Assembly: GCA_964595185.1 (NCBI GenBank) | Contig: CAZQOL010000003.1 | Span: 1 to 30,985 of the forward strand | DNA from: an uncultured Candidatus Saccharibacteria bacterium | Lineage (GTDB): Bacteria; Patescibacteriota; Minisyncoccia; Phycocordibacterales; UBA9973 | DNA: 30,985 nucleotides | Direction: 5' to 3' | Shown: one piece after another, positions 1,757-14,102 of the stretch | Numbering within the stretch: position 1 is the first letter of the stretch | How the letters are laid out: every line of letters begins with the position of its first letter | Program-made: the position numbers and the translations under genes | Notes under the pieces: generated by a model | What the model saw: the letters and a program-made list of their open reading frames with translations, nothing else | What the model was told of the DNA's origin: nothing | Databases searched by the model: none

Positions 1757-3427
1757 CTAATAAACTTCATTTTGATAGCACATCTCACAGTAAACTATCT
1801 CCGGTCGATCTGGGGCATAACTAGTTTCAAATTCATTCGTGCAACCTTCTTTCATGCAAGTTCGGTGCCAGAGCTTGCGTGGTAATCTTAATTTAAATCT
1901 TCTTTGATATCGACAATCTGGACACTCTCGTGGAATTGGAATTTCTTCTCTTCGATAAAAAGTTAATTCGTCAGTAATAATATTATAATTCTTACTACAT
2001 TCTAAACATTTCAATACTTCTTTTAAAATTGAATCATCAATATCACTAATACTATCTCGAATGTTCTCTGATTCAATTGTTTCTTTTCCAAAAATTCCAG
2101 GAACTTTATCTTCCCACAACCAACCTCGAGCAAGGATCTCTTCTTTGGTAAGTGGCATATAATAATTTCCTTGAGTTTCGTTGTAACAAACAGGAGAAAT
2201 TGATGGGGGGAAAAATTCTCCATATTCTCCTGTCTTTTTCATATGTTTAATTATTTTTTCTTTCAACTCTAAAAATTCTACCTTTCTATATTTCTTATTT
2301 AAAATCATATATTCCCCTTTTTTAATAGAAATACAACCAAAAAGATTCGAGGAATTATGACAAGTATCACAATACTGTAATTCTTGATTATCGTAACAAA
2401 GATGATTAAAATAACTGTTATAAAGCCCCTTGCACCCGTGGCATTCATACGCTAGTTCTGTTCCAAAACCGACATGATATAGATCCATCGATAATTTAAT
2501 AAATAAGCATGAAAAAATATTTTTTGTATCTTCTAAATTATCATCATCAAAACATAGCTTTGAATTCTTACTACCAAATAACATATTTCCAGTACAGTTA
2601 ACATTGCGCTCACTTATTATACAACGATGTTTGGAATTATTTCTTATTAAGTTTAAAAATTCTTTATTTAATTTTTTTCGAACTTCATACGAACAAAGAT
2701 TATACTCCTTAATTTTTTCTAAATATTCTTCGCGAGAATATTGTTCATTTTTAAAAATATAATTCTTATTTCTTAAATTAGAAGACAAGAAACAATTATT
2801 ACAATTGTTACAGTCGTAACAATAAAAACAATCAACACAATTCTCTATCAGAAAACTATTCTGGCAATGATATGCCTTACGTGAATCTATACATTCATAA
2901 AGCTTTTCTCCCCCGTCATAAATATAGCTACAGTCTATGCAATTTCTACTCTTCATCATCCAGGTAGAATAGAATACATCCTCACACCATGAACAAGTAT
3001 AAGAAAGATATACATTCTTATTATCACCTGAATGATTAGTGTAATCTGAATTAATACTATTTTTACTTAAGAGTGCTATTCTTGGCACTTCCTTTTGTAG
3101 TTCGTGATATTGCTCAAAAAAAGGACGAGAAAAATCAAAATCTCGTCCATAGGTTGCAGGATCCCAACCATCTCCCCACCAGCACTTTAAACAATAAACC
3201 CTTAAATCCTTATTCGGAGAATAAATAGTCACCGTGCTTTTTCCACACAAATCACAATCTCTTCGATAAAGAGTTCTCTCGTTTCTCCAAGCATATCGTC
3301 TTTGTTGACGACAGTCTGGACACCGAGTTGAAGGTGGAACTTTGATTTTTTCATAAAAAGAAAAATCATCTGGCTCGAGTACGAAGTCATGATGACAGTG
3401 TTGGCAAGTTTTTGTCACTCTTTCCAT
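1757..3427 (-). CDS. Cys-rich zinc-ribbon/repeat family protein, paralog B (556 aa)
   Basis: N-terminal CxxC...FYEKIKVPP..CPxCR, central Cys-rich repeats, C-terminal CxxC...CPxCR...C...C.FETSY.P...YCExCYQNEVY. Confidence 0.92.
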   Translation of the reverse strand: MERVTKTCQHCHHDFVLEPDDFSFYEKIKVPPSTRCPDCRQQRRYAWRNERTLYRRDCDLCGKSTVTIYSPNKDLRVYCLKCWWGDGWDPATYGRDFDFSRPFFEQYHELQKEVPRIALLSKNSINSDYTNHSGDNKNVYLSYTCSWCEDVFYSTWMMKSRNCIDCSYIYDGGEKLYECIDSRKAYHCQNSFLIENCVDCFYCYDCNNCNNCFLSSNLRNKNYIFKNEQYSREEYLEKIKEYNLCSYEVRKKLNKEFLNLIRNNSKHRCIISERNVNCTGNMLFGSKNSKLCFDDDNLEDTKNIFSCLFIKLSMDLYHVGFGTELAYECHGCKGLYNSYFNHLCYDNQELQYCDTCHNSSNLFGCISIKKGEYMILNKKYRKVEFLELKEKIIKHMKKTGEYGEFFPPSISPVCYNETQGNYYMPLTKEEILARGWLWEDKVPGIFGKETIESENIRDSISDIDDSILKEVLKCLECSKNYNIITDELTFYRREEIPIPRECPDCRYQRRFKLRLPRKLWHRTCMKEGCTNEFETSYAPDRPEIVYCEMCYQNEVY

Positions 3428-3543: not shown

Positions 3544-4092
3544 TTATTTAACTCGTGCCATGTATTTATAATTAAGTAAAATCGAAATTATAAATAAAGA
3601 TAAAGTTAGGGCCATGATTGGCATTGTGACATAACCAAATTCGTATATGTAGCGAACGGCACAAGAGACTCCCCCATTTGAAGGATCTGCACAAGCGGGT
3701 CCTTCAGCAATTCCACTTTCAACAAAAATATGATAAATAGAAACAATAGACCCAAGAGTAGCAAAAACTAAAGAAAAATCAACAATTGATTTTTCTTTTT
3801 TATATAATTCCATTCCAAACAAAACTAGTTGCGGATAAAGAAAAATTCTTTGAATCCAACAAAGTTCACATGGTGGGTATCCAACAATCTCAGAATAAAA
3901 TAATGATAAGAGAACGGCTCCGAGTGATGCTAAAAATCCAAAGTGAAAAGTATATTTTTTAAAGAAAATTAAAATTTTATTTTCACTACTACGATTAAAA
4001 ATAAAATTAACGGCAATCAAAAGAATCACAACTTGGAGAAAAATTGTTCCAACGGCAAGTATTTTATTTATAATTTCTATATATGCTGGCAT
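3544..4092 (-). CDS. dsbB: Disulfide bond formation protein B (DsbB/BdbC family)
   Basis: Four hydrophobic segments, GYPPCELCWIQRIFLYP motif, second Cys pair (ACADP...VSC), GYVTMPIMAL. Confidence 0.9.
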   Translation of the reverse strand: MPAYIEIINKILAVGTIFLQVVILLIAVNFIFNRSSENKILIFFKKYTFHFGFLASLGAVLLSLFYSEIVGYPPCELCWIQRIFLYPQLVLFGMELYKKEKSIVDFSLVFATLGSIVSIYHIFVESGIAEGPACADPSNGGVSCAVRYIYEFGYVTMPIMALTLSLFIISILLNYKYMARVK

Positions 4093-4093
4093 A

Positions 4094-4654
4094 TTATTGT
4101 GGGAGAGTAAATTGTATTTGTTCAGCTAAATATGGAAGTGGCACTTCTCCTACAGCTTGGACATTGGCCGGAAATTGCCAAATATTCCCATCACGAATTG
4201 GATCAGTTGGGCTTTTAACTGAAAATTGGTAATCTGGAAAAGACCAAACTTTATAATATTTGGATGAAATATTTGAACATACCCCCTCTTGAGTTACTCC
4301 TTCTACATTGATCGGGCAAATTATTGGCTCAGATTCTGAATTAATTTTAATTCCATTATCAAATGTCCAAGTTGGATATCCTTCGATTTTATTATCAAGA
4401 CAAATCTGTTTTTGAGTATTATCAGTATTTGAACACTCAACATATGGAAGATATTTTTTAGACGCTCCAAATGCTGCTTTTTGAGCCTGACAATGAGTAC
4501 ACCAAAATGCTCCATAAAATTTTACTCCTTTTTCTCCGAGTGTTTTTGCAAAATCATCCAATTTGCCTGGCTTTGAACCAGAATAAAGACCGAAGCCTCC
4601 AATTACCACAACGACAATAATAATAAATATAATAAATTTTGTTTTTGTTTGCAT
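4094..4654 (-). CDS. Membrane-anchored thioredoxin-fold protein (VKOR-associated type) with internal insertion
   Basis: N-terminal TM anchor; FYGAFWCTHCQAQK..FG......YVEC...C....IEGYPTW resembles the Trx domain of cyanobacterial VKOR fusions. Confidence 0.8.
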   Translation of the reverse strand: MQTKTKFIIFIIIVVVVIGGFGLYSGSKPGKLDDFAKTLGEKGVKFYGAFWCTHCQAQKAAFGASKKYLPYVECSNTDNTQKQICLDNKIEGYPTWTFDNGIKINSESEPIICPINVEGVTQEGVCSNISSKYYKVWSFPDYQFSVKSPTDPIRDGNIWQFPANVQAVGEVPLPYLAEQIQFTLPQ

Positions 4655-4660
4655 GTTTTG

Positions 4661-4666
4661 ATTATA
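4661..4666 (-). promoter_or_regulatory. -10 box TATAAT 6 nt upstream of ATG 4654 (leaderless-type promoter)
   Basis: Minus strand reads aggTATAATcaaaacATG. Confidence 0.55.
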
Positions 4667-4690
4667 CCTTGTCTTTAGCTCTTTTCAAAA

Positions 4691-6631
4691 CTATTCCCCG
4701 GAAAGTAATCGAAAGCGGAACGCTCTGAAATAACTAAATAATCTCTGAAAAAAATTGTTAAGTTTTTGAAAAAATAAATTTGGGCTTTCGTCTTTCTCAA
4801 TAAATACTCCACCCGCACTTGCCAAAAGGGCATTGTTCACTTCTTTTTTTTCATCAATAACATTCTTTTCTTCTTTTTTCTCTACAACTAAATTATTTTT
4901 TAAATTCTTAATATCTTGATTATCTATGGTTATTTTTTCGATTGGTATTTCTACTTGAACTGGTGCTTCAATTAATTCTACTAGTGTATCTTCTTTTTCA
5001 ACTGTCTCTTCATCTTCCTGTGGAGTAATAATTTCTTCCTTGTCAAAAGATTCTAAAATATCATTCCAAGACATTTTTAAAACTGCAGGAATTGCATAAG
5101 CTGTAGACCAAACACGCGATTCTATTGCCCCATCGTCTAATCCTCCATCTTCTTTTTGTTGGTTGGCTAAATATAAAATTGCTTTTTCAACTTCTGTCTC
5201 GTATGAACTATCTAGGGCTAAAGCTTGCACTGCCCAGCTTGTAGAAAAAGAGTTTCCAAAATCTCCATCATCATTTTGCTCTCCCAATAAATACAGTCCA
5301 GCTTTTTCAATAGTCTCACTTACTTCATTTAAATTTTTAAAATTCCAAAGAGCCTGAATAGCTGACGAAGTCAGATCAATGCTCTCCCATGAACCATCAG
5401 CTGACTGTTCTCTGATTATATATGCAACAACTTTTTTTATTATCTCATCGTTTTTAGAAAAACCAGCATGGGCTAAAACAATCAAACCAAAAATATCGTC
5501 ATTAATAAGTGAATCATCGCCAATCTGCTGGCCATCAAATGCATCTGTTATTTTTTTAACATAATTTGTATTAGTTTCATTGTATGGATTTATGCCAAGA
5601 GACATCATGGCCATAATATGTCTCTCGTAGTCTGTAATGACGGATGATCCGAATTCATTATTAATAATACGATCATGAATCTTAGATTTTAATAAGTCCG
5701 CCTCATCACTAGAAGCACTAGCAATAGCCACCCAATCTGTATACATATCATTTTGGAATGAACCATCAGAATTTTGGTTGGCTAATAAGAATGAGATTGC
5801 CTTTTGAATTGAAAAAAATAATTCCGGGGTTGATCCTCCTCCACTTCCTCCTCCTGAGGAGGTTTCCACAACTTCAAAATTGACAGTCGGCCAATAATAA
5901 GAAAATCCATTATCATCAACTCTTATTCCGGCACTGTATGAACCAATAGGTATAGTAGAAAAAACTTTTTGTCCATTTTCATCTACCATACCTGATTGTA
6001 TTTCAATCGGATTGTATGGATCATCGGGATTAACTTTAGTGATTCCAACTGTCACTCCAGTTTTTACAAGCCATTGGTTATTTTCAAAATCATATTTCTC
6101 TGTAGAGACTGTTAAATCCTCAGATGTATCAATAGAACTTGCGCTTAATAAAATCCTATCGGTTTGGCCAAAAAATAAATAAATATTTTCACCTCCCGAA
6201 AGAATATTTTTATCCATCCCAACTGTCGGATAATATCCATCAACAACATACTGCCATTCATAACAAAGGGGTTCAGATTCTCCGGAAGTTATGCAGTTAA
6301 GCAAAAAGGCCCCAAATGATTCATTGTAACTAAAGTCTGAAATAGAAAATGAATCATCTTCCTGATCAAGAGTATAAAGCAAACCCAAGACACTTTGATT
6401 ACTTATTTCGTGCCCAGAAATTTCAACCATCTCTTGTACCTCAGGAAATAAAATTTTCCCGTCATATATAATGTTATCTCCATTTCGAATGGTAATTTTA
6501 TTTTCAACAGTAGGAGGTATCACTATCTCGGGCTCCCCGGGCTCAATCTCAGATTCAATAATTTCAGCAAAAACCAAATTAGGCCCCAGAAACATGACAC
6601 TCAAAATAAATATAACAAATATTTTTTTCAT
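4691..6631 (-). CDS. Exported protein: N-terminal DUF4430-like domain, Ig-like linker, prenyltransferase-repeat alpha/alpha barrel; putative cobalamin-binding protein
   Basis: Signal peptide; WQYVVDGYYPTVGMDKNILSGGENI resembles DUF4430; GGGSGGG linker; repeats such as LLANQNSDGSF, IIREQSADGSW, LLGEQNDDGDF, LANQQKEDGGL; lies downstream of the cobalamin riboswitch. Confidence 0.75.
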   Translation of the reverse strand: MKKIFVIFILSVMFLGPNLVFAEIIESEIEPGEPEIVIPPTVENKITIRNGDNIIYDGKILFPEVQEMVEISGHEISNQSVLGLLYTLDQEDDSFSISDFSYNESFGAFLLNCITSGESEPLCYEWQYVVDGYYPTVGMDKNILSGGENIYLFFGQTDRILLSASSIDTSEDLTVSTEKYDFENNQWLVKTGVTVGITKVNPDDPYNPIEIQSGMVDENGQKVFSTIPIGSYSAGIRVDDNGFSYYWPTVNFEVVETSSGGGSGGGSTPELFFSIQKAISFLLANQNSDGSFQNDMYTDWVAIASASSDEADLLKSKIHDRIINNEFGSSVITDYERHIMAMMSLGINPYNETNTNYVKKITDAFDGQQIGDDSLINDDIFGLIVLAHAGFSKNDEIIKKVVAYIIREQSADGSWESIDLTSSAIQALWNFKNLNEVSETIEKAGLYLLGEQNDDGDFGNSFSTSWAVQALALDSSYETEVEKAILYLANQQKEDGGLDDGAIESRVWSTAYAIPAVLKMSWNDILESFDKEEIITPQEDEETVEKEDTLVELIEAPVQVEIPIEKITIDNQDIKNLKNNLVVEKKEEKNVIDEKKEVNNALLASAGGVFIEKDESPNLFFQKLNNFFQRLFSYFRAFRFRLLSGE

Positions 6632-6635
6632 AATT

Positions 6636-7139
6636 TTATTTCAATTCCCATTTAATAATATCTCCCCCTTTTAAAATATATTCCGACACTCCAATTGTGG
6701 CTTCTTCCCCATTCACATAATAAAGCCAATATTTTCCCCCTCCCCCTTCCATATTATTTATTTTATCTATAAAAATCCCCAGGGAGGGATACTCTTTATA
6801 AGAAAAAGTAAAATTATTTTCTTTGTTTTTTTGTAAATTCTCCATTACCTTGTAAACACTGTCATTTTCTTTAATCGCTACTTCATATTTTTTTTCGAAA
6901 ACAATTAAATTTACTTTCTCTTCTGCTTTTTCATCTTCTGTATTTAAAGAAGAGGATGCCCCAGATAGAGGCTTCGCCTCTATCTGGGGCGAAATCATCA
7001 CAGATAAAGTCTTTGTCTCCTGTGTTGGTTGAGTTTCTTCTTTTTTTATCTGTAGATAAGACAAAAAATAAACAAAACAAATTATAATAATCAGAATTGG
7101 AAATGAAACTATTAAAATATTTTTTTTATTTTTTAACAT
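6636..7139 (-). CDS. Membrane-anchored DUF4430 (transcobalamin C-terminal-like) protein
   Basis: N-terminal TM helix; LGIFIDKINN...GKYWLYYVNGEEATIGVSEYILKGGDIIKWE is the DUF4430 signature. Start moved to Met25 (7139) because the listed extension runs through the riboswitch expression platform. Confidence 0.85.
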   Translation of the reverse strand: MLKNKKNILIVSFPILIIIICFVYFLSYLQIKKEETQPTQETKTLSVMISPQIEAKPLSGASSSLNTEDEKAEEKVNLIVFEKKYEVAIKENDSVYKVMENLQKNKENNFTFSYKEYPSLGIFIDKINNMEGGGGKYWLYYVNGEEATIGVSEYILKGGDIIKWELK

Positions 7140-7175
7140 AAATATAAAACCCTCCGGCTCAAGCGGGAGGGTCTT
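7140..7175 (-). terminator. Riboswitch expression-platform hairpin (terminator and/or SD sequestrator)
   Basis: Minus strand AAGACCCTCC-c-GC-ttga-GC-c-GGAGGGTTTT followed by atattt then ATG; the GGAGGG arm is 10 nt before the start codon. Confidence 0.65.
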
Positions 7176-7216
7176 ATCCAAATATATAAAATATTCTCCT
7201 GCTCGGGACACACCCT

Positions 7217-7335
7217 TGTATTAAGACCGGACTTGTCTCTTTCGACCTAAGTCGGAGAGCTTTACCGTTGCGGCACAGTGGAGGAATTTATGCTGTCGCT
7301 CGCGAGCGACAGCATGAACCTCACTTCCAAATACA
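7217..7335 (-). ncRNA. Cobalamin (B12) riboswitch aptamer
   Basis: Minus strand: P1 TGTATT/AATACA; GGAAG; P4 GAGG...CCTC; ACTGTGCCGCAACGGTAA (B12-box-like RCTG..CC.C.RC.GTRA); accessory hairpin; AAGTCCGG (RAGYCRG). Context is nrdJ, an ECF S-component and DUF4430 genes. Confidence 0.8.
7290..7315. repeat. Perfect 26-bp palindrome ATGCTGTCGCTCGCGAGCGACAGCAT
   Basis: The sequence equals its own reverse complement; it sits inside the riboswitch L4 loop. Confidence 0.95.
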
Positions 7336-7358
7336 TTGGTTTAAATTTTAAAATACAA

Positions 7359-7889
7359 CTAACTAACTACTGCAATCCTATTCTTTCTTTGGCTTGCTGT
7401 CGCACGGACAGAAGTTGCGACTAACCATTTCTCAATCACTGGTGATAGCACTATAGCAAACGAAACATTCGAGAGCAAGTGCAAAACCGTAAATGGAATC
7501 TGTCCGATCAAAGAACCCATGAAGGATTGATTAAAAAACAACGGGCCAATAGTTAATCCTGTTATTGCATCATAAAAGATTGTTGCAACAACAGCATAAC
7601 TTGCATAACTCATCCAGCCAGTTCGATTTTTGAAAAAATATGATGCACCTATTCCTAGTAATCCATAAGCGACAGCCGTGACTAAAGTCCAAATACCAAT
7701 TCCAGATGTTATCGAATCAAATAAAACAATACTTAAAAAACCAAAAGCAAATGCCATTATCTTTCCAGAAGTTTTACCCAGGGGCATGATGACTGCCATT
7801 ATTGGTTCAACATTTGGGGCTCGAAAAGGTAAAAGCCTCATTAAAAATACAGACAAAAATATAACGATGTATTTAAACTGTTTATTCAT
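7359..7889 (-). CDS. ECF transporter S-component, CbrT-like (putative cobalamin uptake)
   Basis: About six TM helices in 176 aa; RLLPFRAPNVEPI...LG...G resembles the PN(I/V)xP motif of CbrT-type S-components; lies between nrdJ and the B12 riboswitch. Confidence 0.7.
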   Translation of the reverse strand: MNKQFKYIVIFLSVFLMRLLPFRAPNVEPIMAVIMPLGKTSGKIMAFAFGFLSIVLFDSITSGIGIWTLVTAVAYGLLGIGASYFFKNRTGWMSYASYAVVATIFYDAITGLTIGPLFFNQSFMGSLIGQIPFTVLHLLSNVSFAIVLSPVIEKWLVATSVRATASQRKNRIAVVS

Positions 7890-7897
7890 TATTAATC

Positions 7898-7925
7898 AGT
7901 AATTGGTAATTGGTAATTAGTAATT
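7898..7925. repeat. Heptamer tandem repeat (A/G)GTAATT x4
   Basis: AGTAATT GGTAATT GGTAATT AGTAATT fills most of the 39-nt spacer. Confidence 0.85.
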
Positions 7926-7928
7926 GAT

Positions 7929-10270
7929 TTATACTATATCACAAACACCTGAAACACAAGCGAGTTCTCTCTTTGCTTCTGTCTCATCTTTTAATTCATA
8001 AGTAATTATTTTTGAAAAATCAAAATCTGGCATTTTGCTTATTAACTCTTTGTATGTTTTTTCATCAATTGCTTCATATGGTGCTAATTGATAAACATGA
8101 TTACTTCGTGGTAAGAAAGACAAACCTCCAACTATATCCCAGTTTTGATAAAGCCAATGTGCCACTTGTATCCATTCATTTTCCCCAACTGAAATAGTCA
8201 CAGATGGGTTATGTTCGGTATAATTTACTTTTACAATTTTCCAATGTTCAAGTTGGTCAATAGCCGAAATATCGTCCTTACAAATTGCCCCCTCTGGTGC
8301 TTTCATCGGAAACTCCAAAACAAAAGTATTAGCTGTATCATGTGTCTGCCCTACTTCAGGATGATAAGGGACACCCTGGTCTTTCATCATTTTAAATAAT
8401 GAGTCGGTTGCAGAAATTCGAATACGACGAATATAGTATGGAGCATGTCGTGGGTGCATTCCCGAAGAACAATCAACAGTCTGAGAAACTGTTCCTGAAG
8501 GTTTTACTGCCGTGATACATGTGGATTCACTAATTCCAAATCTCTTTGAATATATTTTATTGATACGGATAGATTCAAGTTTAAGTTTTTTTAACATCTC
8601 TGCATCACGAGAAAGTTTTGAATCCCACTGACCTGTAACCGAAACTCCCAACAATCTTTCTTCGTCACAGTTCTCACGCCATTCCTTACCTAAATATCCA
8701 AATTTTGTTAATGTCGCTTGATATGTTCCTAGAATAGTTGCAATTCGAACTTTTCTCATTAAATCTTCTTCGGTATCTTCACTTCGAGCAACTACTTCAG
8801 ATAAATTACAAAATTGTCTTGAGCGTAGGATTATTTCACCACAGGGGTTTGTTCCCATCTCACCAATATAGTCAGCTGATTTTTCTAATCTTCTTTTTGG
8901 TAATGTTTTATATAAAGATTCTCGATTAAATATTCCTCGCTCTCCACTGCCTGATTCCATTAAAGCAATCCACTCTTTGAGAAATTGAGTTTCGGTAGGT
9001 TTTGTATTGTAAACTGCTGAGTTGTTAGCAAGCATCCGCTGGCCTTCGTTGACCCAAAATTGGCCATTCTTCGAATCACGCATATCTTGATCATCTAAAT
9101 CAGACAATGAAATAAGGGCGCTTCGGCGAACTCCTCCTGAAACCACACACTCTCCTATTTTACAAATAATATCATGAGCATCAATATTGCGAAGATGTCT
9201 TCCTTGACGACGTAAAATTCTTTCCCGGGTAAATCCAAGTAAATTTATTAAAGGCTGAGGGCCGGAAGATTTTCCTCCCATTATTTTAAGTCTTGCTCCA
9301 GCAGGGCGAAGTAAAGAGAAATCAAAATCAACATCGTTACCCTCAAACCAGGTCTTCATTCCATGCACAAAGGCATCTGCCCATCCTTCTTTTGTGTCAG
9401 GAACAACGTAAGTTGGCAATTTTTTATTTGTCTGAATTTTAATTTGAGGAAGTGATTGAATATTTTTACTTTCAACGGAAAACCGACTCCTGTTCCACAC
9501 ATTGAAATATAAATAATGTCTCCAAAATCTTGGAAAGTAGAAGGAGCCACAAATGAACAGTTGTAAGCACAGACATTTGTTTTTTCCGCCGCCGCTCCAG
9601 CAAATTGTAATAATCGCATCGAAGGCATTGCTTCTTGTTTTAAAATTGCCTCACGAACTTCTTGGTATTCACTTTCTTTCAGTTTATCTCCAAGTTTACC
9701 TTTCATAAAATTTATATATCGGTCAACAGTCTCGATCCAAGTCTCACGTCTTCCCTCTTCTTCAATCCATTTTGCATAACTTCGATAGTAAACGAATTCA
9801 GAAAGTGGATTTCTAAAATATTTTTTACTCTCATCAGTTAATTTTTTTACACGCTCCGGCACTGAAATACCCTGAGCCCGAAGAGAAGCTCTTTCTTGTC
9901 TATATAAAATATAATGCTTTGATGTAATAGTATAGTCTGAAAGCATCAATTGCTTCTCAACAACATCTTGCACCGTCTCCACCGTTGGCGTAAAACCTTT
10001 ATTTTCTTTAACTATACTAGCGATTTCCATGGCAACTTTTTTGGCCACCATTTCTGCTTCTTTCAATGACCCTTCCCCACTAGTAAGCATTGCTTTATTA
10101 ATAGCATTCGTAATTTTTCCAATATCAAAAGGAACGATTTCTCCATCTCTTTTTTGAACGCCCTTAATAAAATAATTCTTGCTAACTTTTTTTAAAGTTT
10201 TTTCGCTTATATTTTTTTCTTTTGCAACGACCATTTTTTTGGCACCAGACATTTTCTTTTGTGAAGACAT
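7929..10270 (-). CDS. nrdJ: Class II (adenosylcobalamin-dependent) ribonucleotide reductase, monomeric RTPR type with N-terminal ATP-cone; 1-nt frameshift at 9479-9482
   Basis: ORFs 9356-10270 (ATP-cone VQKRDG..VPFD..KI, AYNCSF, CGTGVGF) and 7929-9500 (SGGVRRSA, NPCGEI, FCNLSE, VKPSGTVS, C-terminal CVSGVC) join as GVGF-SVE if one T is added to GGTTTTCC, giving 780 aa. Confidence 0.9.
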
Positions 10271-10645: not shown

Positions 10646-12355
10646 CTAATAAACCTCATTTTGATAGCAACGTTCGCAGTATATTGTCTCGGGTCGCTCT
10701 GGAGCATAACTTGTCTCAAATTCATTGGTGCATCCAGGTTTCATACACTTCCTATGCCATAATTTTAAAGGATTTCTCTCCCTTATCCTCTCTCCATGAC
10801 GACAGTTAGGACAAAGTCGAGGCAATGGAAGCTTCATACGCCTATAAAAGGCTAACTCTTCAGGTATTATCTTAAATGCTTCCGTGCATTGTTGATTACA
10901 TGCTCCCTTGTGGGCACATTCGATAATTTTAGTGGTTATATCATCAGTTACATCGACTATATTGTCTGGAATATCAATAATATTGTATATATCTATGTGA
11001 TAACTACGTTCTTCCCTATCCTTCCACTTATAGCCTTGCTCAAGAGCCTCTTCTTTAGTCAAGGGAAAATACTCTTGGGCTACGGTTTCATTGTAAGCAA
11101 ATGGTGATAACTCGCTTGGAAAGAATTCCCCATATTTGTAGATCCTGCCCTTGGAGTCAATATATGGCATTTCATTCATATGTTTTATTATCTTTGGGAC
11201 CAATTCTTCGTATTGCTCTTTGGTGTATTGTTTGTTTAGGATGCAGTATTGTTTGGAACGAAGAGAGACACACCCGAAACAATTTGAACAATTTACACAC
11301 AGGTGTAGTAATTCTGAATTTTTATTCCCCTTGCAATGTGAAAAAAATTTAGTCATGTATCCTCCATCAGCGGCCAAAGAAGACTCGTACACAAGTTCGT
11401 TATTCAAACCACCCGATATATCATAGCTATCTTTCGCTCCATTAAACATTCTCCAACAATGTTTAATGTTTTCCCCCTCCACCATAAAACAATTTTTTGC
11501 ATTTTTTGAATTAATTATATTATCACCAGTCGAATCTATGCTATTCACAATATTTGCGAATCTATAAATTTTGTCTTTTCTTAAATCATTAAATTCATTT
11601 ACTGATTTACTAACAAAAGAATATGCCCCCATGTCAAAATCTTTAATTATTCTAAAATATTCTTCTTTTTCATATTTTACATTTCTTATATAATAATTTT
11701 TATTTCTTAATCCATAGCACATAAAACAATTACTACAATTTCGGCAATCAAAAAGAAAATTTGAATCAAAACAATCGCTACAATTATTTAAATAATGAGA
11801 ATTATAAATCTTTCGAGTTATAAAATTTTCATAACAAAATTCTGAAGTATAAACATAGTAACAATCAACCAGATTCTTGCTGCCCTCAGTGAGTCTCGAA
11901 TAATAAATATCCTCACAGTTTGTGGCATTAGAAAGATATATATTTTTTGAATATCCTGTGTAATTGGTATATTCCGAATTTGTATTTCCTAATCCCCATA
12001 AATTAATATTTGGAGTTATGTCCATTAATTCTTTCCATTGAATAAAAAAGTTTTTGCTGAAATCATAATTTCTTCCATATTCGAGTCCATCCCATTTATC
12101 TCCATACCAACAATCATTGCAATAAATCGGAAATTTATTCGATGGGGAATTATTTGTTATTATATTTTTTTTACATAAATCACATTGTTTTTTATAAAGG
12201 ATCCCTTCGTTCCGCCAAATAAAACGCCTTTGTAATCGACACTCCGGGCAAAAAGTTGGAGGTGAAACTTTGATTTTTTCATAAAAAGAAAAATCATCCG
12301 GTTCAATAGTGAAGTCATTTTTACAGTTTTGACATTGTTTGGTCTCGTTTTGCAT
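10646..12355 (-). CDS. Cys-rich zinc-ribbon/repeat family protein, paralog C (569 aa)
   Basis: Same conserved termini and Cys-rich core as paralogs A, B, D and E. Confidence 0.92.
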   Translation of the reverse strand: MQNETKQCQNCKNDFTIEPDDFSFYEKIKVSPPTFCPECRLQRRFIWRNEGILYKKQCDLCKKNIITNNSPSNKFPIYCNDCWYGDKWDGLEYGRNYDFSKNFFIQWKELMDITPNINLWGLGNTNSEYTNYTGYSKNIYLSNATNCEDIYYSRLTEGSKNLVDCYYVYTSEFCYENFITRKIYNSHYLNNCSDCFDSNFLFDCRNCSNCFMCYGLRNKNYYIRNVKYEKEEYFRIIKDFDMGAYSFVSKSVNEFNDLRKDKIYRFANIVNSIDSTGDNIINSKNAKNCFMVEGENIKHCWRMFNGAKDSYDISGGLNNELVYESSLAADGGYMTKFFSHCKGNKNSELLHLCVNCSNCFGCVSLRSKQYCILNKQYTKEQYEELVPKIIKHMNEMPYIDSKGRIYKYGEFFPSELSPFAYNETVAQEYFPLTKEEALEQGYKWKDREERSYHIDIYNIIDIPDNIVDVTDDITTKIIECAHKGACNQQCTEAFKIIPEELAFYRRMKLPLPRLCPNCRHGERIRERNPLKLWHRKCMKPGCTNEFETSYAPERPETIYCERCYQNEVY

Positions 12356-12392: not shown

Positions 12393-14102
12393 TTAAATCA
12401 CTTCATTTTGATAACATTTTTCGCAATAAATTCTTTCAGATCTATCAGGAGAATATGATGTTTCAAATTCATTACTACATCCTTCTTTCATACAAGACCG
12501 GTGCCAAATTTTTGGGGGTAAAACATTTAAAAGTCGTTCGTAATATCTACAATTTGAACATTTGTTTGGTATTGGAATATTATGTTTTTTATAAAAATTA
12601 TATTCATCTCTTGTTAAGCGAAAAGCCGTAATGCATTTATGATTGCATTTACCCCCATGAACACAGCCAAGTATTTCATTTAGAATTTTATCATCCACAT
12701 TCCTTATATCATCTGGAATATCTTTTTGTTCAATTGTAATATTAAAATTCTTTATTTCAGGTTCATACCATTTATATCCCTGCTTAATTATTTGCTCCTT
12801 CGTAAGAGGATAAATATCTTGCGCTAAAGTTTCATTATAAGCAAAAGCTGAAATCTCAACTGGAAAAAATTCCCCATATCTATATACTCTTCCCTTATTG
12901 TCTACATACGGCAAATCATTCATATGTTTTATAATTTTTTCTCTTAAAGATTCATATTCTTTTTTACTATAAACTTTATTAAAAATTACATTTTCTTTAT
13001 TTCTAATACTTATACAACCAAATAAATTTTTACTCGAAATGCACGACTCAATATATTCGGCGTGTTGAACTGAATCCACCGCCGAATATGAAAATTTGAT
13101 ATCATAATCATTTAATGCTCCGGTGCAATATTCATACAGAAGTTCAGATTTACCGGCATAATCTACATCCATGGAGTCTTTATTATTTAAAACACGAAAA
13201 CAATATTTAGCATTCTCTACATTATATAAATCAAAACAATTTAAACAGTTTTTTGAATTTAATATATCGTTTCCTGTTGAGTTTACAGATTTAATAATAT
13301 TTGCGTAACGATAAAATGCATTTTGACATAAATTCCTAAATTCAAACATTAATAAATCACGTGATTTACGACTTCCTAAATTTAATTTTTCAAGTTCCCT
13401 ATAATAATCTTCTTTATTGTATTGTTTATTTCTAATATAAAACTCCTTATTTCTTTGATTCGAACAAAGAGCACAATTACTACAATTTACACAATCAATC
13501 AAAAAATATGAATCTATGCAATTCCTAGATAACATTAAATATTGAGAGTTATAATTTTTTTCACCCTCAATACTTTCATAACAACTGTCAGATTCTTTAA
13601 TATTATAACTATCATATATGTTAAAGGACTTGTCAGCACCACGAGAATAAAAAATATCTTCTGAACCTAAAACAACAGAAACTGAAAGATAAACATTTTT
13701 GCACTCACCACACATGTTTGAATAATCTGAGTTAATAACATTTCTGTGCCAAATTCCAATTCTTGGAACAATATTTGAAAGTTTTATCCACTGTTTAAAA
13801 AACGGTTCTGAAAAATTATATTTAAAAGCATAATCCGTTGCATCCCATTTATCGGAATACCAACATTTAGTACAGTAAACTGGAAAAGTTACATTATGAC
13901 TATATATTGAAATCATACTATTCTCACATAAATCACAAATGCGCTTGTATAAAGTCCTTTCATTTCTCCAGCTCATCCTCCTTTGTTGCCGGCACTCCGG
14001 ACAAAAAGTTGGAGGTGGAACTTTGATTTTTTCATAAAAAGAAAAATCATCCGGCTCGATAATGAAGTCGTTTTTACAATTTTGACACTGCTTTGTTTCC
14101 AT
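12393..14102 (-). CDS. Cys-rich zinc-ribbon/repeat family protein, paralog D (569 aa)
   Basis: Same architecture; in tandem with paralog C. Confidence 0.92.
   Translation of the reverse strand: METKQCQNCKNDFIIEPDDFSFYEKIKVPPPTFCPECRQQRRMSWRNERTLYKRICDLCENSMISIYSHNVTFPVYCTKCWYSDKWDATDYAFKYNFSEPFFKQWIKLSNIVPRIGIWHRNVINSDYSNMCGECKNVYLSVSVVLGSEDIFYSRGADKSFNIYDSYNIKESDSCYESIEGEKNYNSQYLMLSRNCIDSYFLIDCVNCSNCALCSNQRNKEFYIRNKQYNKEDYYRELEKLNLGSRKSRDLLMFEFRNLCQNAFYRYANIIKSVNSTGNDILNSKNCLNCFDLYNVENAKYCFRVLNNKDSMDVDYAGKSELLYEYCTGALNDYDIKFSYSAVDSVQHAEYIESCISSKNLFGCISIRNKENVIFNKVYSKKEYESLREKIIKHMNDLPYVDNKGRVYRYGEFFPVEISAFAYNETLAQDIYPLTKEQIIKQGYKWYEPEIKNFNITIEQKDIPDDIRNVDDKILNEILGCVHGGKCNHKCITAFRLTRDEYNFYKKHNIPIPNKCSNCRYYERLLNVLPPKIWHRSCMKEGCSNEFETSYSPDRSERIYCEKCYQNEVI

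Follow-up and report, generated by a model that had tools for sequence, protein, structure and literature searches.

The genomes of Patescibacteria (the Candidate Phyla Radiation) are minimal, and these bacteria rely on other cells; we know of little that says which cofactors they take up and by which routes. A stretch of 30,985 nucleotides from one such genome (positions 1 to 30,985 of contig CAZQOL010000003.1, assembly GCA_964595185.1; the whole stretch is here called the window) raises this question for vitamin B12. On the minus strand, which codes the entire 31-kb window, nrdJ, the gene for a class II ribonucleotide reductase (RNR), is followed in transcription order by the gene for a membrane protein resembling the S-components of energy-coupling factor (ECF) transporters, a structured leader, and genes for a 167-aa DUF4430 protein, a 646-aa protein, a thioredoxin-like protein and a DsbB protein. 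Does this row of genes serve to capture, import and use B12? The genome assembly comprises 823 kb in 99 contigs and is 91% complete, and its relatives in the databases carry the names Candidatus Nomurabacteria or Paceibacterota. Two sets were used for comparison: a genus set of 41 genomes, 25 of them at least 90% complete, and a phylum set of 301 Patescibacteria genomes.

We conclude that this is probably a corrinoid (vitamin B12) acquisition-and-use locus, in which ligand binding and transport are predicted. The conclusion draws on a riboswitch and terminator upstream of the DUF4430 gene, an S-component gene beside nrdJ, riboswitches at corresponding loci of other lineages and a PduO gene elsewhere in the genome, and it agrees with the function proposed in the original prediction, which was made from the letters of the window. 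The parts named there, nrdJ, an S-component, a riboswitch and two DUF4430-type proteins, are all present, contiguous and co-directional; a conserved thioredoxin-like/DsbB pair extends the locus to position 3544.

A cobalamin-clan riboswitch and terminator precede the surface protein genes

When the window was scanned with Rfam at the gathering threshold, only a tRNA and no riboswitch was returned. A permissive scan matched RF01482, the adenosylcobalamin (AdoCbl) family of clan CL00101, at 7354..7190 (33.1 bits against a cut-off of 50, E 0.003). The cobalamin riboswitch that had been predicted here is thus below gathering in the window itself, but is borne out by the permissive match, by orthologs above the cut-off and by covariation. 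Of 19 related loci, 11 have the equivalent element at or above this cut-off (50.5–64.1 bits). In an alignment of 12 sequences with these orthologs, the window aptamer retains every invariant core position, and its low Rfam score is explained by an additional 27 nt in the loop of P4 and a longer P6 hairpin. The P4-loop insertion includes a perfect 26-bp palindrome, ATGCTGTCGCTCGCGAGCGACAGCAT, at 7290–7315, which is missing in all 15 orthologs. The 16-nt core of this palindrome, GTCGCTCGCGAGCGAC, occurs once more in the genome (G000:C61:2867), inside another perfect palindrome, and the two may represent a small family of inserted GC-rich palindromes.

A covariance model derived from this alignment located the element in 16 loci, window included; these are 16 of the 17 loci for which the region directly upstream of the DUF4430 gene was captured. 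It gave no match at G026, where the upstream region is in hand (~100 nt between pduO and the DUF4430 gene), and probably none at G028, where the start of the DUF4430 gene is not resolved. Over the 16 sequences, in an alignment fitted to the model and drawn mostly from one genus, 94.4% of cells were paired and 11 pairs showed compensatory changes; none of 500 shuffles reached the observed covariation, and slid controls were 34–52% paired. Whole-genome Rfam searches of G000 with RF00174 and RF01482 were empty, missing the window element as well, and so tell us nothing about divergent copies.

In 14 of the 16 loci scanned, window included, the stretch from the aptamer to the DUF4430 start codon contains a GC-rich hairpin with a T-run after it. 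The window hairpin (CCCTCC..GGAGGG, followed by TTTTATATTT; −20.7 kcal/mol by RNAfold) encloses the ribosome-binding site GGAGG, which lies 11 nt ahead of the ATG, and the 3′ arm of the corresponding hairpin in several orthologs duplicates the invariant 3′ segment of the aptamer, GCAGGAG. The hairpin and T-run look like an intrinsic terminator, and the leader has the layout of a transcriptional OFF switch, with the ligand response being predicted. The aptamer begins 5 nt past the stop codon of the S-component gene, and no convincing promoter of its own was seen. The leader may act as an attenuator within the nrdJ–S-component transcript; a promoter belonging to the aptamer, inside the conserved AT-rich 5′ flank, is also possible.

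The putative importer is probably a distant relative of CbrT

The 176-aa membrane protein matches the Pfam family ECF-ribofla_trS under the cut-off (E 7e-4). Its AlphaFold model, built with 20 homologs, has a pLDDT of 79, and the top 18 Foldseek matches of this model in the PDB are all ECF S-components (FolT, RibU, ThiT, PanT and others; TM 0.42–0.71, probability 0.92–1.00), CbrT being ranked 33rd. As modelled, the protein is of the six-helix ECF S-component fold.

ECF-CbrT and BtuM are characterised S-type B12 transporters. The original prediction had described the protein as CbrT-like, which stands transitively, by way of DUF6580, but not by direct match. A profile of seven Patescibacteria DUF6580 proteins finds CbrT (6fnp_A) at E 5.3e-8 as its only significant PDB match, and the window S-component family aligns with DUF6580 over 142 columns (hhalign, E 1.3e-4, probability 54%). 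The window protein itself does not match PF20221 (DUF6580); distant homologs in G137 and G183 pass both the window-family model and the DUF6580 model, the latter above its cut-off. A P-N-[VFM]-x-P-[IV] motif close to the start is common to the window family, DUF6580 and CbrT. The 176-aa protein is the presumed B12 importer and probably a distant relative of DUF6580 and CbrT. The two bridging homologs, L058 (G137:C16, 7058–7561) and L059 (G183:C118, 3726–4241), are 39–40% identical to the window S-component; their genomes are without DUF4430, and no nrdJ was found in the 10 kb around them. Identity with BtuM was considered and rejected, as the 176 residues contain no cysteine and BtuM's cysteine ligand to cobalt is therefore missing.

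Among the genus genomes, the S-component occurs in 28 of 41, every one of which also has nrdJ. It adjoins nrdJ in 26 of 27 relatives, and six genomes of one subclade have an S-nrdJ-pduO cluster. EcfT (PF02361) was found in none of the 41 genus genomes, including the 25 that are at least 90% complete, and in 4 of the 301 phylum genomes; from these four matches, the PF02361 model does detect Patescibacteria EcfT where it is present. A canonical, Firmicutes-like arrangement was seen in G090, a member of the same class (L062, G090:C28, ~4117–7308), with DUF4430 followed by EcfT and then two ABC ATPase genes (EcfA and EcfA′).

Two surface proteins share a transcobalamin-beta-like domain

The small DUF4430 protein starts at the ATG at 7139, which fits the orthologs; the GTG at 7211 given by the ORF finder falls within the leader. 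The protein consists of a transmembrane (TM) helix (residues 7–25), a low-complexity linker of ~50 aa and a C-terminal transcobalamin-beta-like domain, and matches PF14478 at 52.9 bits, against a cut-off of 23.8. The 646-aa protein has, in its AlphaFold model (pLDDT 80.6), a cleavable-looking signal peptide, a beta-grasp/SLBB-like domain (43–160), a beta-sandwich (165–255) and a Gly/Ser linker, followed by an (alpha/alpha)6 toroid (271–525), a disordered acidic tail and a helix (617–645). Its N-terminal domain and the DUF4430 domain of the small protein are paralogs (34% identity, E 2e-5), though the former reaches only 17.3 bits with PF14478 (cut-off 23.8). Homologs of the 646-aa protein occur in 21 of 36 genus genomes; out of 36 members of the family, 15 match PF14478 (E ≤ 0.01, best 3e-12) and 24 match PF01122 (Cobalamin_bind). 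The window protein itself matches PF01122 at 32 bits (cut-off 25), over residues 432–483 only, and SQHop_cyclase_C at 41.7 bits.

By Foldseek and VIA-align, terpene cyclases, complement TED domains, intrinsic factor (IF) and transcobalamin (TC), and GH76 enzymes all score highly against the toroid, with VIA Z values of 25 for class II terpene cyclases, 23 for squalene–hopene cyclase (SHC) and 20–21 for IF and TC. With several toroid groups scoring this highly, fold alone is insufficient, and its ranking was rejected as a means of identifying the ligand. Two family assignments were rejected as well. Membership of PF01122, the family of TC, IF and haptocorrin (HC), is not tenable given a partial match, a beta-then-toroid order and the lack of any full-length match, while the architecture of a class II terpene cyclase or SHC does not apply to a single toroid that sits behind a signal peptide, SLBB domain and beta-sandwich rather than in a two-toroid beta–gamma arrangement. 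The likeness to transcobalamin claimed in the original prediction hence holds for the combination of domains, in permuted order, but not for family membership. A complex predicted for the toroid (265–530) and the SLBB domain of the small protein scored 0.02 against a mark of 0.32 and was used neither for nor against binding.

C113 and C123, the only cysteines of the mature 646-aa protein, are nearly invariant, and genes for the thioredoxin-like protein and DsbB come after the toroid gene at most loci of the genus; the sister genus G347 also has them beside its toroid gene, on the opposite strand. The thioredoxin-like protein has a TM segment at 7–25 and cysteines at 52 and 55, and is a probable DsbA/BdbD-like oxidase. 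The DsbB protein has a CxxC and a second cysteine pair, and scores 99.8 bits with PRK03113, under the cut-off of 124. The near-invariance of C113 and C123, together with these conserved neighbours, suggests a dedicated disulfide-forming pair for the exported protein. The best sigma-70-like site of the region (TTGAAA-16-TATAAT, 11/12) lies at 4688..4661 on the minus strand, between the toroid and thioredoxin-like genes, and the thioredoxin-like/DsbB pair may be transcribed independently, outside riboswitch control.

NrdJ is the only B12 enzyme detected in the genome

NrdJ is a class II RNR and appears to be of the monomeric ribonucleoside triphosphate reductase (RTPR) type, its best NCBIfam match being TIGR02505. 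In the assembly, nrdJ is split into two overlapping ORFs, 10270..9356, with the ATP-cone and RNR alpha domains, and 9500..7929, with the class II insertion domain; the C-terminal piece alone scores 238 bits with TIGR02505, whose cut-off of 340 is set for the whole protein. The minus-strand TTTT at 9482–9479 would need to be TTTTT to read GVGFSVES, a one-base deficit. In 32 genus relatives nrdJ is a single open frame of 746–813 aa. None of the public runs contained this strain (the best shares 0.34 of sampled words), and the frameshift was compared with relatives' contigs: the extra T is present in every site-spanning contig from other metagenomes, two in run X3 and one in run X4; one of the X3 contigs, of 79 nt, has only one further difference from the window. 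Since the frame is intact in relatives and the extra base is present in contigs of other metagenomes, we take the frameshift to be an artefact of the assembly or the strain, and see in it no sign that NrdJ is dispensable.

The genome carries a PduO adenosyltransferase gene on contig 15. Searches of the same genome found no NrdD, B12-binding-domain protein, FecCD/BtuC permease, CobS or other S-component. The PF02867 search missed the window's own nrdJ, so that the absence of a class I RNR is weakly supported and the NrdD negative is firmer. As NrdJ is the sole RNR detected and the sole recognisable B12 enzyme, the making of DNA seems to depend on B12 taken up from outside, and with no CobS found, a complete cobamide would be needed.

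The gene pair recurs across Patescibacteria

In the phylum set, DUF4430 was found in 75 of 301 genomes (68 of 248 genera) and DUF6580 in 72, with both present in 66. The two lie within ~3 kb on one contig in 54 of these 66, mostly less than 150 nt apart, as counted from their coordinates. NrdJ above the TIGR02504 equivalog cut-off was present in 56 of the 74 other DUF4430-positive genomes, and six more have the RTPR type; nrdJ is no more than 6 kb from the DUF4430/DUF6580 pair in at least 33 genomes, and full clusters with pduO occur in G272, G204, G328, G358 and G068. PduO was rejected as a phylum-wide marker of B12 use, its enrichment being too weak (30 of 75 DUF4430-positive genomes vs 66 of 226 others); this tally takes in the unpublished genome G218, and no claim is built on it.

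A cobalamin-clan riboswitch lies just upstream of DUF4430 in 5 of 12 sampled phylum loci, at or above the cut-off in 3. Synteny beyond the genus, which the original prediction had proposed as a check, was also seen in the pair of a small DUF4430 gene and a large toroid gene, which is kept in distant Parcubacteria, one locus (L043) having an AdoCbl riboswitch upstream (48.7 bits). In the sister genus G347, the DUF4430 and toroid genes follow an RF00174 riboswitch (40.1 bits), and S-nrdJ-pduO lies elsewhere without a riboswitch, so that the apparent division of regulation is the same as in the window.

A separate observation concerns nrdJ itself. Beside the DUF4430/DUF6580 pair, several Patescibacteria have tandem arrays of three or four full-length NrdJ matches, some in open frames of 1200–2000 aa (G152:C46:264–8296, G216:C7:11243–18275, G196:C39:9546–19234, G268:C1:84845–92290, G313:C9:12055–17498 and G154:C6:15522–21082). 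These could be tandem paralogs or intein-rich genes.

A model for B12 capture and use

The following model would account for the arrangement of the locus. NrdJ and the S-component importer would be produced together, outside B12 control. When AdoCbl is plentiful, the bound aptamer would permit the terminator to form, and transcription would end before both surface-protein genes; under B12 shortage, both the tethered SLBB protein and the exported SLBB–toroid protein would be made. The exported protein could then capture a corrinoid between its beta-grasp domain and its toroid, in the manner of transcobalamin, and the tethered SLBB protein could hand it to the importer. As no EcfT was found, import is proposed to be solitary, as has been suggested for BtuM and for solitary BioY. 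Imported B12 would be trapped through adenosylation by PduO, encoded elsewhere in the genome, and through binding by NrdJ. The thioredoxin-like/DsbB pair probably makes the C113–C123 disulfide of the exported protein.

A broader proposal is more tentative, and we give it somewhat less than even confidence: that Patescibacteria import B12 by a CbrT-like S-component without an ECF ATPase, fed by tethered SLBB proteins and sometimes by SLBB–toroid proteins too, with the capture proteins under cobalamin riboswitches and NrdJ as the main consumer, an architecture so far undescribed. The analysis gives two domains of unknown function testable roles in Patescibacteria, DUF4430 as a candidate surface B12 receptor and DUF6580 with its relatives as a candidate CbrT-like importer, in a pair found in about a quarter of the 301 genomes and nearly always without an ECF energizer. 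The regulatory logic is consistent, with the capture proteins alone placed behind the riboswitch. If the proposal is true, solitary S-component transport extends to a case with extracellular receptor proteins, and bacterial transcobalamin relatives in a new domain order become available for structural study.

Alternative explanations

Several findings weigh against the B12 reading. The window riboswitch is under the Rfam cut-off and the inserted palindrome could impair the aptamer; nrdJ is frameshifted in this assembly; and PduO is weakly enriched in DUF4430-positive genomes. The direct profile match of the importer to CbrT (6fnp_A), its sole PDB hit, reaches only E 1.3, and five genus genomes, three of them at least 96% complete, have nrdJ without the S-component. 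The toroid is nearer to terpene cyclases (Z 25; SHC sequence E 6e-13) than to IF and TC (Z 21), and a profile search of PDB sequences with the toroid returned no TC, IF or HC at E ≤ 1. A homologous operon of Lactobacillus sakei, lsa1836–1840, which encodes S, A, T, beta-like and alpha-like proteins, has been tied experimentally to the uptake of heme, not B12 (bioRxiv 10.1101/864751).

The last of these points leads to the alternative that the surface proteins and importer handle heme or incomplete corrinoids, and that the riboswitch merely couples their expression to B12 status. Besides the L. sakei operon, it can call on the transport of cobinamide by ECF-CbrT (PMC5997447) and on the caution of the reviewers of Burroughs et al. 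(2007) that SLBB ligands may be diverse (PMC1796856). We consider it improbable, because several lineages have cobalamin-clan riboswitches upstream of their DUF4430 genes, the DUF4430/DUF6580 pair clusters with nrdJ and pduO phylum-wide, and no CobS was found in the genome.

We give about the same small weight to the possibility that B12 bound by the SLBB and toroid proteins is stored outside the cell, or is competitively sequestered or pirated at the host–symbiont interface, and that import takes place independently of them. The adjacency of DUF4430 and DUF6580 in 54 of 66 pairs argues instead for a physical or functional partnership. Independence would fit the position of the genus importer upstream of the riboswitch, where it is separately regulated, the unlinked capture and S-nrdJ-pduO genes of G013, G032 and G347, and three genus genomes that have the importer and in which no toroid protein was found.

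Less probable still is that the toroid protein has nothing to do with B12 and works outside the cell as an enzyme, or binds cell wall or lipid, akin to terpene cyclases, prenyltransferases or TED domains, with the riboswitch serving the small DUF4430 gene only. Class II terpene cyclases and SHC are indeed the best matches in both structure and sequence, family members carry the NCBI label ‘terpene cyclase/mutase family protein’, and the toroid contains an invariant NDD motif. Yet the protein has a single toroid, is exported, and carries an SLBB fusion otherwise typical of transcobalamin-type binders (PMC1796856); its gene forms a tight pair with the small SLBB gene in distant Parcubacteria, and 24 of 36 family members match Cobalamin_bind.

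Equally remote is decay of the locus in this genome, in which nrdJ would be a pseudogene and the palindromic insertion would have disabled the riboswitch: the frameshift at 9479–9482 and the 27-nt insertion that drops the Rfam score to 33 bits would fit it, but the extra base is present in all spanning contigs elsewhere, no other RNR was found in the genome, the invariant aptamer positions and the terminator are intact, and the downstream ORFs are all open. A corrinoid acquisition-and-use locus thus remains the explanation that we favour.

Layout of the locus

The coordinates of the features are collected in Table 1. On both sides of the B12 locus, at 1757–3427, 10646–12355 and 12393–14102, lie genes for paralogous proteins of ~556–569 aa that are 40–50% identical; the 1757–3427 copy has weak N-terminal matches to treble-clef zinc fingers. 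In the relatives L024–L035, two to five tandem copies of this family surround the same locus.

Table 1. Features of the predicted corrinoid locus, in order of transcription
Feature	Position in window	Strand	Evidence
nrdJ (frame broken in assembly)	7929..10270	−	Pfam ATP-cone, RNR_Alpha, RNR-II_ins_dom; NCBIfam TIGR02505
S-component-like membrane protein, 176 aa, six helices (model)	7359..7889	−	AlphaFold and Foldseek
Structured leader	7140..7354	−	Aptamer and expression platform
AdoCbl (cobalamin-clan) riboswitch aptamer	7187..7354	−	RF01482 permissive scan (7354..7190), orthologs, covariation
Expression platform, hairpin and T-run	7141..7172	−	Sequence reading, RNAfold
Membrane-anchored SLBB/DUF4430 protein, 167 aa	6636..7139	−	PF14478, TM segment, ortholog alignment
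Exported SLBB/beta-sandwich/toroid protein, 646 aa	4691..6631	−	AlphaFold, Pfam, signal peptide
Membrane-anchored thioredoxin-like protein, CxxC (WCTHC)	4094..4654	−	Pfam Thioredoxin, 24.6 bits
DsbB/BdbC-type disulfide oxidoreductase, four TM helices	3544..4092	−	Pfam DsbB, 53.9 bits; NCBIfam PRK03113

Comparison with known systems

The closest precedent is the work of Burroughs, Balaji, Iyer and Aravind (2007), who described secreted SLBB domains of the transcobalamin clade in Gram-positive bacteria and predicted them to be B12 scavengers (PMC1796856). They found SLBB domains with an alpha/alpha toroid fused before or after them, operons with a further, paralogous SLBB gene, and linkage to CbiO and CbiQ. 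The window proteins resemble these in joining a surface SLBB domain to a toroid, which is C-terminal in some of those bacteria as it is here, and in having a paralogous SLBB gene in the operon; those organisms are without B12 synthesis, and a scavenging role was proposed for them. The difference lies in the ECF energizer, CbiO/CbiQ, which is part of those operons, whereas EcfT was found in 0 of 41 genus and 4 of 301 phylum genomes here. Riboswitch control, the linkage to nrdJ and pduO and the thioredoxin-like/DsbB pair go beyond the 2007 description, and the host is a member of the Patescibacteria rather than of the Firmicutes. The original prediction had been aware of no characterisation of the module in the Candidate Phyla Radiation; a module of this type was in fact predicted in 2007 for Gram-positive bacteria, but the literature searched contained nothing on it in the Candidate Phyla Radiation, nothing mentioning DUF6580 and nothing joining SLBB, cobalamin and a riboswitch.

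In Lactobacillus delbrueckii, ECF-CbrT (PDB 6FNP) belongs to an nrdJ-cbrS-cbrT-pduO cluster (Santos et al. 2018, PMC5997447). There as here, the gene for a small S-component is linked with nrdJ and pduO, one subclade of the genus having S-nrdJ-pduO; CbrT uses a shared EcfAA′T module, however, and none was found here. The L. sakei lsa1836–1840 operon likewise groups an S-component with extracellular proteins that are transcobalamin beta-like and alpha-like. It differs in including ECF A and T proteins and in having no reported B12 riboswitch or nrdJ linkage; moreover, it encodes the alpha and beta parts separately, while here both are joined in one protein and a second protein adds another beta domain.

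BtuM of Thiobacillus denitrificans, in which cobalt is ligated by a cysteine (Rempel et al. 2018, PMC6072759), is similarly a solitary protein of S-component fold in an organism without an ECF module. Unlike the window protein, it has the cysteine; it is mostly found in Proteobacteria, downstream of BtuB, and has no known SLBB partner. With mammalian TC, IF and HC, the 646-aa protein shares an (alpha/alpha)6 toroid and a DUF4430/SLBB beta domain, but the beta domain comes first, a beta-sandwich is inserted, the linker is long and the toroid sequence is closer to SHC repeats. What would be new relative to all of these systems is a module from which the ECF energizer is nearly always absent, in which relatives of CbrT (DUF6580 and the window family) are paired with DUF4430 proteins, the riboswitch is limited to the capture proteins, a Dsb pair is included, and which is spread through the Patescibacteria beside nrdJ.

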